Positions 48,744-55,883 of a stretch of 64,000 bases of DNA are shown here, in pieces. Position 1 is the first letter of the stretch. Each line of letters starts with the position of its first letter. The notes beneath the pieces were generated by a model. The model had not been told where the DNA came from. It worked only from the letters and a program-made list of their open reading frames with translations, and did not search any database. Source of the DNA: Dictyostelium discoideum (Eukaryota); contig CM000153.2 in the NCBI GenBank assembly GCA_000004695.1, positions 2,400,001 through 2,464,000 on the forward strand. Reading direction: 5' to 3'. The position numbers were made by a program, and so were the translations under genes.

Positions 48744-49685
48744 TTATAATAATAATGATAAAATAATAAATATAGCAGAGAAACATAATGAAACTTTAAT
48801 GGTGTTACCAAAAGATGAATCTTTTTCTTTTGGGATTGTTTGATGTAATGATGAATCATAGATATCAGAACCAAGAACAAGATTATTAACTTTTAAACCT
48901 GAATGAGTGTTAACATTGATTGAACATTCAACATCAGAGGTTTCACATACAACATTATCTCCAACACAATGAATTGATGGACTTGGAGAAGAACAATTAA
49001 TGGTACCATTAATATTATCAGTTGAACAAGTTGACCCACCACTTGATGTACACATTATTGGACCATTACCTTTACAATAAATTGGTTGAGGACTATTAAC
49101 AGTAATACCATTATTTGTTACACTGCATAAAATTTTTGAAGGCTTTGGTGTTTGGGTTGGTGTATGAGATGGTGTTTGGGTTGGTGTATGAGATGGTGTT
49201 TGGGTTGGTGTTTGAGATGGTGTTTGGGTTGGTGTATGAGATGGTGTTTGGGTTGGTGTATGAGATGGTGTTTGAGTTGGTGTTTGAGATGGTGTTTGAG
49301 TTGGTGTTTGAGATGGTGTTTGAGTTGGTACTTGAGTTGGTGTTTGAGTTGGTGTATGAGATGGTGTTTGAGATGGTGTTTGAGATGGTTGTTGAGTTGG
49401 GTTTGGAATTGGACAAGCATATTGACTTTCAATAAAAAAGTTGTAGATACATTTAGGACTTTCACTTAATTCTTTGATTAAGAATCTAACATTTGGGTTA
49501 CATTTAAATGAATATGTTGAATTTCTATGTCCTGCATTGCCACAACCGGTAGTAGGTTGTTGTTGGGAATTATAGTAGGTAATTTGAATTGTATTATTTG
49601 GACTTGGATTAAATAGATAGACTACATTATTAACATTACCAATTTCAAAATTAGACACTCCCTCTGTTTGACATGATTGTGTACC
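48744..49685 (-). CDS. Secreted MRH-domain (mannose-6-phosphate-receptor-homology-like) protein with a T/P-rich mucin-like repeat and a C-terminal GPI-anchor-like signal, exon 2
   Basis: [45 protein letters not shown] fits the MRH pattern (CGN..R.T..F.C....E...C.Y.F....AC). ([12 protein letters not shown])n linker, Cys-rich module, then a hydrophobic C-terminus [15 protein letters not shown]. Acceptor ag at 49687/49686. Confidence 0.65.
49146..49400. repeat. 24-bp tandem repeat x ~10 encoding (PTQTPSQT / PSHT)n
   Basis: ggtgtttgRgttggtgtatgagat units. It produces artefactual ORFs in four frames (track 49111-49469). Confidence 0.9.
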
Positions 49686-50677: not shown

Positions 50678-51292
50678 TTAATTAATGCAAGTTGCTTTAT
50701 ATTGAGCATCAAAACATGTAGTTAAATGGTTTGTATTACAGGAATTAGAATTATCACCACAAATTGTGATGTATGGAATTCCTTCTACACAAGTAAATTC
50801 TTGAGTTGAACTTTGATTATCATAATCAACTGTTGTACCATTTGTTACAAAAGTAAAGTTTTGATAATTATCAATACTACATGGGTCACCAAAACTACCA
50901 GATTTACTCCATACATTAAATTGTAATGAATTTTTTGGTAAATCAGCATTCAATTCAACTAAATAATAACCTTTAAAATAGGTTGAATATTGGCATGTAT
51001 TAAAATTGAATATCTCTGTAACATAAGGTTTTCCATTTGAACCAAGTACGCTCATCTTGAGTTGATCACTTTTTGTTGATTCAGAGAAATCTAAAAGGTC
51101 ATAAAAATTTCCAAAAACTTGAATTAAATTTGAATTCATAGATGTCAATTCTGGCATATAACCATAACCAATACCACCACCAACTTGAGTGCATTTTGAA
51201 TCTCTGAATGGAGTTAATACAATTGTTTCATTTTTTGAAAAAACTGAGTTAATTGAAAAGATTAAAAATATAATTGAAAATAAGAGTTTCAT
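50678..51292 (-). CDS. Small secreted Cys-containing protein (204 aa), function unknown
   Basis: ATG 51292-90. Signal peptide MKLLFSIIFLIFSINSVFS. 10 Cys; N-glycosylation sequons. Single exon. Confidence 0.75.
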   Translation of the reverse strand: MKLLFSIIFLIFSINSVFSKNETIVLTPFRDSKCTQVGGGIGYGYMPELTSMNSNLIQVFGNFYDLLDFSESTKSDQLKMSVLGSNGKPYVTEIFNFNTCQYSTYFKGYYLVELNADLPKNSLQFNVWSKSGSFGDPCSIDNYQNFTFVTNGTTVDYDNQSSTQEFTCVEGIPYITICGDNSNSCNTNHLTTCFDAQYKATCIN

Positions 51293-53009
51293 TATTTTTT
51301 TTATTTTTTTTTTATTTACTACTTCAAAATGAGCAAGATTTTGAAAGATGGTGGTAAAAAAAAAAAAAAAAAAATTTAATTTATACTAATAAAAAAAAAA
51401 AATAAAATAAAATAATAAGGGATGGTTTTCAAAATTGATTGATATTTTTTTTTTTTCTTCACACTATTTTTTTTTCAAAAAAAAAATCTTTAGAACGTTT
51501 TTGTACAATGGAACAAAATTTTAATTTATTTTTTTTTTTTTTTTTTTTTGGTTTTGAATTAATATCTTTTTTTTTTAATTTTTTTTTCCACAAAAAATCT
51601 TATTTTCAAAGAAAAAATGACCAAGTGTTTTATTTTATTTTTATTTTTTTAGAATCTGGATTAATTCCAAAATAATAACAGTTTGGAATCCACCCAGATG
51701 ACATGGAATGAAGATATTTATAATAATTGGTTCAAAAATATTTTCGTTTGACTTTTTTTATAACTTTTTTTTTTTATTTTTTTATTTGTAGTATTTAAAA
51801 AATAAACAACTTATAATAATAAAATTTTTTTTTTTAAATAATCTAAATGAAAAAATTGTTAGAAAAAAAAAAAAAAAAAAAAAAAAATAAAGAATATTAT
51901 AAATTAACAAAAACAATTATATTTTTATTTTTGTTTTTATTTTTTGTTATGTTTTTTGACAAACCAATTATGGTTTTTATTTTTGTTTTTATTTTTGTTA
52001 TGTTTTTTATTTTAGTAATACCTTTATTTTATTTGTTTTTTTTTTATTTTTTTTTTTTATTTAATATTTTTTTATTTTGTCCTTTTTGATACCAGGAAAT
52101 TAAGATTAATTGTCAATAGATCTTGAATATTTTATATTCAAAAAATTAATCTTCGAAGGTGCCTTATATTTTCAGAAAATTTAAAAGTTGGATAGGCTCC
52201 GTCTTTTTAAGGTTTTAATGAGGAATAAAGCATTTCTGTACTTTTGTATTTTTCATATTCAGCCGTGCTATCATAAAGTCCTTCATATGAGGCACAATAA
52301 TTAAAATCATACTGGAAATTCATATTTTTTTTGCTTTTCCCCAAGGTGTAATTTTTTTTATTTTTATTTTCACTTTTGCCGCGCTGTTTTTTTTTTTTTT
52401 TTTTATTTCAGATATTTTTATTTTCAATTGTTTTATTTTTATTTTAACTTTTAACGCACTGTTTTTTTTTTTATTTTTTTTTTTTATAAATAAAAAGATG
52501 AAATATGGGGTTAAATATGAAATTGATCAATCTATTCCAAACGATTTGCCTGATTTTCCATTTATAGATGAAAAAGATTATCCATCTGAACGATGGGAAA
52601 TTACACTAAAAGATCAAGACACAATAATATTTTCTTTTAATTTTCTTTATGTTTGTATTTTATATTGAAAACAAAAAATATATCAATTAAAAATAAAATG
52701 TCAAAATTATTAATAATAATAATAATACCATTTGAAACAATAATTAGATTGGGAAATTTTTAAATGAAATTAAGAGATATTGTAAAAACAGAATAATTAC
52801 TTTTGAAACAAACATTCCAAAAGAAAATAATTTTTATTTATTATATCATTTTATTATTTGGAAAAATAAAAATAATTGGTGTGAAGATTCCAAGGTTTTA
52901 ATCTTTAAAAACTCAATGATATTTATTTTTTGTGAAACTCGAATTAAAATTGATATTGATAATAATGAAATTATAATTGTAAGTTATTAATAACAAAAAA
53001 AAAAAAAAA

Positions 53010-53046
<37 letters not shown>

Positions 53047-53104
53047 AACTTTTTTAGTATTAAAGAAAAGTAATCCAAAAACAGATACAACTTTAGAATT
53101 AAAA

Positions 53105-54910
53105 ATGAGTAAATTTTTAGAAAATTTAAAAGAAAAACCATTGCAAGTAAAAAATTATTATTATTTTTTCACAATACTTTCTAAAGTTTCAAACTCTGTA
53201 CTTATTAATGATGATGGTTTCGATATTTGGATTTATTCATTAGAGTATCCATTATTTATAATTGCAAAGAATGGTACAGGTAAAACTAGATTTTTAAAAA
53301 AGGTTTTCACAAACTCTGGGATTCTTAAATGTAAACAATCAATTTATTTGAATGAATTTATGGTTTTATCATTTAGTAATGGCGTAAATAATGAAGAGGT
53401 TAAATTCTTTGAAGAGTTTTTAAATGTTTATAAAGCACATTCGATGTTATCAACTCTAAATAATAAAGGATTCTTAACGAAATATATATGGAATTCAATT
53501 AATGAGGTATTAAAATCGAATAATTTACCTTTCTCATTATTACCATCGGATTTAAAGAGTGATAGATTATTATTTAAAATGGATGATGTAACACTTTATT
53601 ACCATGATTTATCATCCGGTGAAAAAACATTATTTATAGTGTTTGCTTTAATTGTATTCTATCAAGATAATTATTCAGGTATTGCTGATGAAGAAGTTTT
53701 GTTATTATTAGATGAAATTGAAACAACATTGCATGCTCAATCATTAAGAGTTTTATTTAATGCAATTCATAAACAAAGAAATAATTTGAAAATTATAATG
53801 TCAACTCATAATTCAACATCATTAAGAATTGCATCAGAGTATGGTTTTCATTATTATTTATTAGAGAAATCTTTAACCATATCGGATGGAAATTCTGTAA
53901 AAATTAAAGAATTAAAATCACATGAAAATGCAATTAGCTATGTTAGTGATGGAATGTTATCAGTTGTAGATAGTTCAAAACTTGTATTTGTTGAAGACGA
54001 CGATGATAGTAAATTCTATGAAATTGCATATAAAAAACTATTTAATTATCCACACACAACTAGATTAGTATTTTGTAATGCTGGTATAAAAAATAATAGT
54101 CAACATGATCTTAATCAAGTATCATTAATATTAAAGAAAATGGATGGAAATGATGAAAATGTCAAATCCATTCAAAAATTAATTAATACCCTAAAAGAAA
54201 CAAATACAATCGGTGGTAAAACATCAGTTAAAGAAAAGGTTAAATTACTATCTGAAAAATCAGTTACTGAAGAATCATTCAGATTAGGTAATTCTCAAAT
54301 CATTGGTTTATTAGATAAAGATGATGGTAAAAATGAAGGTGAATTTTTAATAACAATTGATTACTATAGTTATGAGATGTTTTTATGTTCTCCTTTAGTA
54401 TTATTTTATATGATAAAAAATGAATTTTTAAAAACATCTCCAGATTCACATTTATCAACAATAACAACAACAACACCATCATCACAAGAAATAAATACAA
54501 ATTTATCACAACAAGATATGGTTTGTTTTGTTATTGAAAAGTTAATTGAAAAAGAAGTTGAAACTAAAAATAGAGAAACAAATAAAACTTGGAAAGAATA
54601 TTTGGATATTTTTTATGAAGGTATACGTTCAACAACATTGTTTGATGTAAAATTAGAAAACCAAGCAATAATCAAAGTACCTGAAATTTTTATAAATGGA
54701 TTTGGTAAAAAAGGAAAAGGTCATAATCTCTTTGATACTTTGGTTAGAATATTTGCATTTGGATTAAATATGCAAGAATCCACTGAAAAATTAAAAATAA
54801 AAACACTTGAAGCTTTTGAAAAAATGTCAACTGATAATATTCCATCATGTTTAAGAGATACATTTTTAAAAGTAATGAATTACTCTTTAAAAAAAATTAC
54901 AAATAATAAC

Positions 54911-54944
<34 letters not shown>

Positions 54945-54955
54945 TAAAAAATTAA
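53105..54955 (+). CDS. ABC-type ATPase (AAA_15/AAA_21-like) fused to a Toprim-like domain: OLD / Gabija GajA / PARIS-type architecture; 616 aa, single exon
   Basis: Walker A IIAKNGTGKTRFL (aa 53-65). ABC signature LSSGEK (169-174). Walker B LLLLDEIETTL (199-209). H-loop IIMSTHN (230-236). C-terminal Toprim-like motifs LVFVEDDDDSKFYEI (Glu 297; cf. OLD-family VEGxxD) and GLLDKDDGKNEG (DxD, ~105 aa later). AT-rich Dictyostelium codon usage and a poly-Asn tail. Confidence 0.8.
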
Positions 54956-55883
54956 AATTATTGATTACATTATTATTATTATTATTTTTTTTTTTTTTTT
55001 TTCTTTTTTTTTTTTTTTTTCTTTTCAAAAAAAACATAATTAATTATTATTGATCAATAAAATATTCTAATTTAATTAAGAATTTTTAAAAAAAATCTTT
55101 TGTTTCTGGAAAGTATATTTTGGTAGAGAATCTTTAGAAGATAAAAAGAAAAAAAAAATTCAAAATAAAATTCCAATTTGGTTTTATTTCAATAATTTAT
55201 TTATTTTTATTTATTTTTTTTTTTTAAAAATAGTAATAATAAAAAAGAAAAAAATAAAGTATGGGTGCTTTTAGAAAAAAAATAAGAAATAATTAAAAAA
55301 AATTAAAAAAAAATAAAAATAAAAATAAGAAAAAAATGGTTTTAAGATTATTATAATAATCTTTTTAAAGATGATGACGCCCCTGTGGGCTGGTCGGTCG
55401 GTGGGAAATTATAATATTTTTTATTTTTTTTAATTTTTTTTTTTTTTTTGAAATTTCAATTTAAACATCATCAAAATACCTTTTTTTTTATTAATTTTTT
55501 ATTTTTTTTTAATTTTTTTATCTTTTTTTTATTTTTTTTTAATTTTTTTTTTTATTTTATTTTGTTTTTTTTTTTTTTTTTTTTAATTTTTTCCTTTGTT
55601 CTTCATACACAAAAAAGAATTTAAAATAATCTTTAAACAGAAAAAAAAAAAAAAAAAAAATAAAATTAATATAAAAAGGTATTTTAATTTCTCAATTCTT
55701 TTTTTTTTTATATTACATTTTATAATAACTAAAAATATCAAATTATAAGATATTATTATAAATGAAATAGATTTAAAATAAAATTTTATTTTACAATAAA
55801 AAATAATAAAATTAAAAATAAAAATAAAATAAATAATAATAATAATAAAAAAAAAAAAAAAAAAATAAAATAAAATAAAATAA

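Follow-up and report, generated by a model that had tools for sequence, protein, structure and literature searches.

ATPase-Toprim systems (OLD, Gabija, PARIS and retron type I-B) are among the commonest anti-phage weapons of bacteria, and in the searchable literature they were described from bacteria, archaea and their viruses only. PARIS is defined by the combination of an AAA_15 or AAA_21 ATPase with a DUF4435 domain, encoded by two genes or by a single-gene fusion (PMC9122126; PMC11464382). AriA builds its hexamer with helical insertions (PMC11464382). Once released, AriB dimerises and cuts tRNA-Lys by two-metal catalysis (PMC11464382; PMC12409363), with the metal-binding residues E26, D30, D88, E90 and E122 (PMC11464382) and an active site formed by residues 19-43, 80-87 and 109-115 (PMC12409363). 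Both AriB and P2 OLD are tRNases gated by their ATPase (PMC11464382; PMC12409363; bioRxiv 10.64898/2026.07.10.737580). The single-chain P2 OLD is reported to be an inactive tetramer, which opens its Toprim site on destabilisation and then cleaves tRNA (bioRxiv 10.64898/2026.07.10.737580). Here, we describe an ATPase-Toprim fusion gene of Dictyostelium discoideum. It was found in a stretch of 64,000 nucleotides (GenBank assembly GCA_000004695.1, contig CM000153.2, positions 2,400,001 to 2,464,000 of the forward strand; termed the window throughout the paper), where an uninterrupted open reading frame (ORF) of 616 codons plus stop occupies positions 53105-54955 on the plus strand. With a probability of roughly 0.6, we interpret this gene as a bacterial or phage single-gene PARIS-type defence protein, which was horizontally transferred to the D. 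discoideum lineage and kept as a working gene.

A sequence-only reading of the window had proposed a protein of 616 amino acids (aa) with the ABC-ATPase motifs in canonical order, two Toprim hallmarks about 105 residues apart, native AT-rich codon usage and a poly-Asn tail. Translation returned exactly this ORF. All four ATPase motifs were found in the claimed order, E297 and D404 of the Toprim hallmarks are 107 residues apart, and the poly-Asn tract was located at residues 600-612. The codon usage is as described, with a GC content of 23% and a GC content at third codon positions (GC3) of 12%. As 616 stop-free codons have a probability of about 1e-28 at this composition, the ORF is not a product of chance. 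The features of the gene are as follows.

53105..54955, plus strand: main ORF, 616 aa and stop, ABC-type ATPase fused to an AriB-like Toprim domain (translation, Pfam, predicted fold, orthologues)
53105..53884, plus strand: ABC ATPase domain of the AAA_21/AAA_15 type, residues ~1-260 (Pfam, PADLOC, predicted fold)
53264..53287, plus strand: Walker A, AKNGTGKT, residues 54-61, with N56, G57, G59 and K60 invariant in the family
53609..53626, plus strand: ABC signature, LSSGEK, residues 169-174
53699..53716, plus strand: Walker B, LLLLDE, residues 199-204, followed by an altered D-loop
53801..53809, plus strand: H-loop, STH, residues 233-235, with H235 invariant in the family
53957..54424, plus strand: predicted Toprim core, residues ~285-440, resembling AriB/DUF4435, under the strongest constraint within the gene
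53987..54007, plus strand: Toprim motif 1, FVEDDDD, residues 295-301, with E297 and D301 as putative equivalents of AriB E26 and D30
54080..54214, plus strand: helical Toprim insertion of ~39-45 residues (~326-370) between the Toprim Glu and DxD
54311..54328, plus strand: Toprim motif 2, LDKDDG, residues 403-408, with D404 and D406 as putative equivalents of AriB D88 and E90
54362..54394, plus strand: Toprim motif 3, YYSYEMFLCSP, residues 420-430, with E424 as putative equivalent of AriB E122
54425..54895, plus strand: helical region at the C-terminus, residues 441-597, which can be aligned up to the end of the bacterial proteins (P526, P580)
54902..54940, plus strand: poly-Asn tract, residues 600-612 (13 residues), far longer in D. 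cf. discoideum and D. citrinum

The N-terminal half was recognised directly by sequence profiles. Pfam AAA_21 matched with an E-value of 3.6e-9 (37.6 bits, curated cutoff 27) and AAA_15 with 32.7 bits (curated cutoff 32.1), both over residues ~101-237. The Pfam match is limited to model positions 162-300 of 304. The top PADLOC models for the amoeba protein were three AriA models (E 3.5e-10 to 6.5e-8), followed by mad3 and PtuA; the best GajA model reached 18.2 bits (E 1.7e-4) over residues 193-335 only. These assignments, with AriA as the best match of the defence library, speak for the sequence-only reading and against a P-loop domain of the SMC/RecF type only. The columns of Walker A, signature, Walker B and H-loop are invariant or at least 90% conserved among 100 bacterial relatives. 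A full-length AlphaFold model with a mean predicted local distance difference test score (pLDDT) of 75.9 matched SMC heads, retron and Septu PtuA, TsOLD and retron Eco8.

For the C-terminal half no match was obtained in Pfam, NCBIfam and PADLOC scans of the amoeba protein, and phmmer of the protein against PDB sequences gave noise only. As the fold search with the full-length model was dominated by SMC and PtuA heads with little on the C-terminal domain, this domain was modelled separately (residues 262-600, 32-sequence alignment, pLDDT 76.7, predicted template modelling score 0.77). Like the full-length model, it is a prediction of moderate confidence. In the structure comparison suggested by the sequence-only reading, Foldseek against the PDB returned a sole good match, 8ux9_A, the AriB chain of the PARIS complex, with a probability of 0.99 and an alignment covering the whole chain; the next PDB match had a probability of 0.12. 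Residues ~285-440 are predicted to fold as Toprim, with AriB ranking first among the solved structures, followed by class 1 OLD and then class 2 OLD Toprim. The predicted fold agrees with the Toprim domain that had been claimed for residues ~290-430. E297, D301, D404, D406 and E424 are 99-100% conserved in 100 bacterial relatives and identical in the orthologues of D. cf. discoideum and D. citrinum, as the sequence-only reading had expected of the acidic motifs. By its sequence, the amoeba protein appears to retain all five acidic equivalents of the AriB two-metal site, the residue correspondence being deduced from motif order and the family/DUF4435 relationship and not from residue-level superposition. 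The probable Toprim link of the amoeba protein is based on transitive homology and predicted fold.

The prokaryotic family provides this transitive link. A search with the single amoeba sequence found only three relatives of ~590 aa with ~25% identity. In BLASTP, P0001 and P0003 align with residues ~129 to ~434 of the amoeba protein, a stretch that crosses both domains and includes the three Toprim motifs; the third motif reads YSYEMFL in the amoeba versus HEHENYL or YSIENFL in the relatives. A four-sequence alignment extends to the C-terminus. Using an exhaustive profile search of 1.84 billion protein representatives, 1,359 cluster representatives were identified at E<=1e-30, mostly 570-610 aa long and matched end to end. 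All relatives are only 20-29% identical to the amoeba protein. Their hosts comprise Bacteroidota, Alpha- and Gammaproteobacteria, Planctomycetota, Acidobacteriota and Myxococcota, in addition to phage-sized viral contigs. By phmmer, the amoeba protein is nearest to the main ~590-aa clade. A closer kinship to the longer or prophage-borne subclades P0004-P0015 was rejected, as phmmer gave no match at E<=1e-3.

Profiles were scanned over 80 sequences, namely 79 bacterial members and the amoeba protein. AAA_21 and AAA_15 matched all 80, Pfam DUF4435 matched 41 (E<0.01, best 3.1e-9), and the PADLOC model of fused PARIS, AriAB, matched all 79 bacterial members (best 7e-37) and not the amoeba protein. 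The PADLOC retron model 'ATPase-Toprim_I-B' matched 79 of the 80 and was second best for the family. AriAB was the top model in 4 of 5 members examined singly, with 56-109 bits and alignments from the ATPase C-lobe deep into the Toprim region. The AriAB and DUF4435 matches together with the definition of PARIS indicate that the bacterial family is a PARIS-type fusion clade, by sequence somewhat removed from the seeds of the AriAB model. As the scores amount to 56-109 bits only, we regard the relatives as a related clade and not as core AriAB members.

When ORFs within 2.5 kb were clustered across 60 prokaryotic and viral loci, no conserved neighbour was found. The top flanking cluster, a phage DNA methylase, occurred in 6 of the 60 loci, and a conserved partner gene was rejected; the family behaves as a single-gene system. 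Three genomic contexts were examined, one beside an Mrr-type nuclease in a Bacteroidota genome, one at the edge of a prophage and one beside ParB/NUMOD4 genes. The 776-aa relative P0007 (L003 10001-14655) on a Bacteroidota chromosome has an Mrr_cat restriction-type nuclease two genes downstream and surrounding genes without Pfam match, a neighbourhood which looks like a defence island. The prophage-borne relative P0012 (L005 7556-11968) directly follows the holin/lysis genes, at a distance of ~2 kb from a gene for the hairpin domain of the anti-defence family Acb2/Tad1, which places defence and anti-defence genes on one prophage arm.

Compared to the described systems, the data support fused PARIS (AriAB, PADLOC PDLC02981) as the closest known group, closer than Gabija. 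Fused PARIS shows the same order of ABC ATPase and DUF4435-type Toprim in one chain of ~600 aa and is likewise a single-gene system. The bacterial relatives of the amoeba protein match its model first and are located in prophages and defence-like neighbourhoods. The amoeba protein shares the predicted AriB-like Toprim fold and, by the deduced correspondence, the five acidic metal-binding positions. It differs in that AriAB and DUF4435 (at least 27 bits) do not match, in its eukaryotic host, in a deletion in the ATPase, in the Toprim insertion and in the loss of R420, N425 and D429; with the shortened region between Walker A and signature the ATPase core is not complete. Two-gene PARIS of E. 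coli B185 (AriA and AriB; PDB 8UX9, 8V46) consists of two polypeptides instead of one. The amoeba protein has no sequence-level AriB match, and the segment between Walker A and signature is largely missing. Furthermore, AriB is released from its complex, while the Toprim domain of a fusion cannot leave as a separate protein. Retron type I-B effectors (class 3 OLD, Retron-Eco8) are represented by the Eco8 structures among the full-length fold matches and by the second-best PADLOC model of the family, but neither a reverse transcriptase nor a non-coding RNA was found beside the amoeba gene or its bacterial relatives.

The locus itself is clearly eukaryotic. All neighbours of the ORF are eukaryotic genes, a multi-exon saccharopine dehydrogenase (SDH), a Snf7 protein, a CfaA_B_C-family protein and the Frizzled-like fslA, two of which were identified by exact look-up as D. 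discoideum proteins (DDB_G0284765 and the fslA cluster). Syntenic loci were retrieved from five assemblies, anchored on these neighbours, with the common gene order Snf7, SDH, ATPase-Toprim gene, CfaA-like gene, fslA. At the site of the ORF, gene calls exist for D. discoideum GCA_054883475.1 (650 aa), for D. cf. discoideum (774 aa) and for D. citrinum (736 aa). In all, four assemblies from three taxa have the gene in this place, flanked by SDH and the CfaA-like gene. In the recent assemblies it is labelled just 'hypothetical protein' with no domain on record. No gene was called at the syntenic site of D. firmibasis or D. dimigraforme. With tblastn a full-length orthologue was detected in D. 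citrinum, while the syntenic loci of ~22 kb retrieved for D. firmibasis and D. dimigraforme gave nothing but poly-Asn noise. In the nucleotide alignment the flanks are conserved, while window positions ~51,640-55,190 (~3.5 kb) are missing in these relatives. Among the amoeba loci compared, only those of the D. discoideum/citrinum group contain the gene, and the flanks on both sides of this clean indel are conserved. No second copy of the ATPase-Toprim ORF was found within the 64-kb window. A mobile-element signature was rejected, as no terminal repeats, tRNA genes or Rfam elements were found around the lineage-specific segment, just A/T low-complexity repeats. The CfaA_B_C-family neighbour (window 50678-51292) occurs once each in D. 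discoideum, D. citrinum and D. firmibasis, and as a tandem array of three copies in D. dimigraforme (L071 5657-9155).

All three orthologues are intact ORFs with a common start ATG and identical motifs, and they share the Toprim insertion and the fixed residues Y420, M425 and F426. They differ mostly by poly-Asn expansions. The D. citrinum orthologue (L070 2360-4570) carries a poly-Asn insertion of ~40 residues in the linker between ATPase and Toprim and a C-terminal poly-Asn tail of ~90 residues; the linker insertion shows that the domain boundary tolerates large insertions. Ratios of nonsynonymous to synonymous substitution rates (dN/dS, omega) were calculated as simple pairwise Nei-Gojobori estimates.

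Whole gene: 0.28 versus D. citrinum (dS 0.35), 0.34 versus D. cf. discoideum
ATPase: 0.31 versus D. citrinum, 0.40 versus D. cf. discoideum
Toprim core: 0.12 versus D. citrinum, 0.047 versus D. cf. discoideum
C-terminal region: 0.44 versus D. citrinum, 0.67 versus D. cf. discoideum

A neighbouring control gene yielded 0.17. The intact orthologues and the purifying selection argue for a gene which is functional in the amoebae, with the nuclease core as its most protected part by these estimates.

As members of the family occur in many bacterial phyla and on phage contigs, and within the amoebae were seen in the D. discoideum/citrinum group only, the direction of transfer would be from bacteria to the amoeba. 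The sequence-only reading had considered an ancient horizontal acquisition or a conserved immune-like module. Horizontal transfer is favoured by our data, but a broadly conserved amoebozoan module is not, since the gene was found in the D. discoideum/citrinum group and is missing at the syntenic site of two close species. Judged by the identity of fslA, D. discoideum and D. dimigraforme are roughly equally close to D. citrinum, with D. firmibasis farthest away. With this one marker, the order in which D. discoideum, D. citrinum and D. dimigraforme branched could not be fixed, and fslA was rejected as a basis for deciding between gain and loss; the presence/absence pattern together with these identities requires a very recent gain or at least one loss. 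A precedent for the entry of a bacterial immune effector into Dictyostelium without its operon, followed by domestication, is TirBCD, with TIR domains acquired from bacterial TIR-STING (PMC13142454). TirBCD belongs to an unrelated family (TIR NADase), and the respective paper (PMC13142454, a 2026 preprint) does not mention the amoeba ATPase-Toprim gene. No Dictyostelium protein appeared in the homology searches. By exact look-up, the 616- and 650-aa products and the 736-aa D. citrinum product are absent from the 15-billion-protein collection, in which neighbouring genes of the same assemblies are present; therefore, negative protein searches for the family in eukaryotes were not used as evidence of its absence there.

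The sequence-only reading had described a single-exon gene and a 57-codon small ORF just upstream. The small ORF is real and conserved in D. citrinum and D. cf. discoideum. The 616 aa are encoded by one ORF, but the single-exon structure became uncertain, as two conserved upstream exons may belong to the gene.

52498..52650, plus strand: possible exon 1, 51 codons within the 57-codon ORF 52498-52668, omega 0.74, weakly constrained
52748..52978, plus strand: possible exon 2, 77 codons, omega 0.30, 81% protein identity to D. citrinum
52979-53065, plus strand: putative intron between exon 2 and the main ORF
53066..53104, plus strand: 13 in-frame codons before the main ATG, coding if exon 2 is spliced on, otherwise 5' untranslated region

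In D. citrinum the first block likewise has 51 codons, with no indel, and a GTAAGT donor comes next. The frame of the second opens at a conserved acceptor and closes at a conserved GTAAGT donor. Both can be joined in frame to the main ORF in three species; in D. discoideum a three-exon model is possible, and the same model is the only two-intron solution giving the annotated 774-aa product of D. cf. discoideum. The D. discoideum annotation includes part of exon 2 only (650 aa), and that of D. citrinum splits the region into two genes (211 and 736 aa). As read-through past the second donor meets a stop after three codons, a separate small upstream gene is a further possibility. The upstream peptide has no Pfam match. 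Judged from these sequence blocks, the protein may carry a eukaryote-specific N-terminal extension of ~130-140 aa. The poly-A run of the putative intron measures 16 nt in the window versus 15 nt in GCA_054883475.1 (L068), with identical coding sequence; this difference indicates that the window stems from another D. discoideum assembly, presumably that of AX4.

Several observations set the amoeba protein apart from the family or weigh against the transferred PARIS-type protein. The amoeba protein keeps 33 of the 47 positions that are at least 90% conserved in the family, versus 40-47 in bacterial members. R420 (R in 100 of 100 relatives), N425 and D429, beside the catalytic E424, are replaced, changing the family consensus RYSIENYLxDP of motif 3 to YYSYEMFLCSP. 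The D-loop is altered from DEPDxHLH to DEIETTLH. Walker A and signature are separated by 110 residues, compared to 188-252 in 100 relatives. This deletion of ~96 residues could disable oligomerisation or sensing; by its position, the missing segment probably corresponds to the site of helical or insertion domains such as those building the AriA hexamer. The distance from the Toprim Glu to DxD is 107 residues versus 58-78 in the same 100 relatives, all of which lack the Toprim insertion conserved in the amoeba orthologues, and the C-terminal tail is longer than in these relatives. The profile search envisaged by the sequence-only reading gave AAA_21 and AAA_15 above cutoff, but DUF4435, Toprim_OLD and DUF2813, as well as AriAB, did not match the amoeba protein even at E<=10. 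A family profile of the C-terminal domain found no match among PDB sequences, and the TM-scores of the model to AriB are low (0.32-0.35). Nuclease activity, substrate and immune role are attributed to the amoeba protein by analogy, and we know of no biochemical characterisation of fused AriAB. Finally, the absence from close species suggests a recent gain, while at most 29% identity to any sampled representative together with the amoeba codon usage suggests long residence, an unsampled donor or repeated loss.

Taking architecture, predicted fold, catalytic residues and selection as observed, we infer activity, substrate, trigger and biological role from PARIS and P2 OLD. By this analogy, two ATPase heads would close around ATP and keep the Toprim domains inactive. 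A trigger, either a foreign protein or an aberrant nucleic acid, would bind and, in concert with ATP binding or hydrolysis, free or re-pair the Toprim domains. These would then cleave nucleic acid through two-metal catalysis, most likely at the anticodon stem-loop of a tRNA, which would stop translation. We propose that the amoeba protein acts as an ATP-gated Toprim nuclease, most likely on RNA, with altered sensing and assembly. The remodelled ATPase, the Toprim insertion, the lost residues and the possible N-terminal extension make it probable that it differs from bacterial PARIS in trigger, oligomeric state and substrate specificity.

A more far-reaching explanation, which we put forward only tentatively, is a PARIS/OLD-type abortive-infection tRNase turned into a eukaryotic innate-immune or cell-death effector. 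With the upstream exons as new N-terminal sensor or regulatory part and the remodelled ATPase, it would fire on intracellular bacteria, viruses, transposons or in kin conflict by cutting host tRNA. If true, no earlier OLD-family immune nuclease would be known from a eukaryote.

Alternatively, the protein could be a stand-alone DNA nuclease of the class 1 OLD or GajA type, nicking or degrading foreign, damaged or replicating DNA instead of tRNA, which we consider unlikely. Class 1 OLD (P2 Old; Thermus scotoductus OLD, PDB 6P74) likewise combines ATPase and Toprim in one chain encoded by a lone gene, and this part of the class 1 assignment made from the sequence alone stands. However, neither the DUF2813 nor the Toprim_OLD profile matched, and the closest fold is not OLD. 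Gabija GajA (class 2 OLD) shares the general ABC ATPase and Toprim architecture. The proposed ATPase-Toprim fusion of the OLD/Gabija/PARIS group is supported, but Gabija is not the closest member of it, with 18 bits for GajA, no significant full-length match and no adjacent GajB; in agreement with the sequence-only reading, no GajB/UvrD-like or other helicase gene was found among the genes surrounding the ORF.

Somewhat more doubtful still is a domesticated, non-immune job, for instance in RNA or DNA processing, cell cycle or development, with the bacterial sensing logic lost. A precedent is the archaeal Cran1, an OLD-family ATPase with a role in cell-cycle progression and not in defence (PMC12796447). 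The loss of part of the ATPase region and of several family-invariant residues, the possible gain of eukaryote-specific exons, and a steady purifying selection instead of the diversifying pattern typical of arms-race genes point in the same direction. On the other hand, the gene is missing at the syntenic site of D. firmibasis and D. dimigraforme and thus evolutionarily dispensable, which fits an accessory or conflict gene better, and its C-terminal part evolves fast (omega 0.44-0.67).

A catalytically dead or decaying relic, either a scaffold kept as binding protein or a non-functional leftover ORF, is improbable. The lost R420, N425 and D429, the changed D-loop, the large ATPase deletion and a C-terminal domain recognised by no sequence profile would fit such a relic. 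On the other side, three species preserve the five metal-ligand positions along with Walker A and B, signature and H-loop, dN/dS within the gene is lowest in the Toprim core (0.05-0.12), and the ORF is open in three genomes against a chance of ~1e-28. Bacterial contamination, misassembly or cargo of an active mobile element might be suggested by the lineage restriction of the gene and its location on a ~3.5 kb segment missing in relatives, but is effectively refuted by the same SDH/CfaA-like position in four assemblies of three taxa (this synteny excludes contamination, which the sequence-only reading had discounted from codon usage and poly-Asn tail), by the GC3 of 12% and the poly-Asn tracts, and by the lack of terminal repeats, tRNA genes or Rfam elements around the gene.

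Some further observations were made in the vicinity. A GC-rich block had been noted at 52100-52670; the region is slightly GC-richer, but the peak reaches only ~21% GC versus 14-15% nearby. This patch at 52100-52345 (~21% GC versus 14-15% around) did not align with the D. citrinum locus at E<=1e-5 and holds just a 38-codon minus-strand ORF (MNFQYDFNYCASYEGLYD...). The sequence at 52165-52187 matches the start of the ORF over 23 nt, which was judged to be due to chance in AT-rich DNA. A short GC-rich island at 55372-55406 (gatgatgacgcccctgtgggctggtcggtcggtggg) is located in intergenic DNA of ~10% GC upstream of the SDH gene, with flanking DNA that aligns to D. firmibasis and D. citrinum; it may represent a regulatory element. 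At 48744-49658 on the minus strand a secreted-looking protein with a long, near-perfect (S/T)-Q/H-T-P repeat is encoded, and this repeat causes the strong local peak of GC and GC skew at 48.7-49.7 kb.

In the literature searched, no report on a eukaryotic or Dictyostelium member of the PARIS, AriA/AriB, DUF4435, OLD or Toprim group and no publication on the amoeba ATPase-Toprim gene were found. The genomes scanned by Rousset et al. (2022) were bacterial and archaeal only (PMC9122126), and a term search of an OLD review (PMC10568477) did not return 'eukaryot'. Here, a eukaryotic chromosome, that of the best-developed amoeba model, carries an ATPase-Toprim gene whose catalytic residues are intact and which evolves under purifying selection. 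It seems that a eukaryote tractable in the laboratory has adopted an abortive-infection weapon of bacteria. This makes it a testable question whether a single-chain PARIS/OLD protein works outside the bacterial cell, what is sensed when phage proteins are not the enemy, and how a potentially lethal tRNase is tamed after horizontal transfer. The comparison of three amoeba copies with ~1,400 bacterial relatives also indicates which parts of the protein are dispensable, namely the ATPase insertion and R420, N425 and D429, and which are not, namely the acidic pentad.

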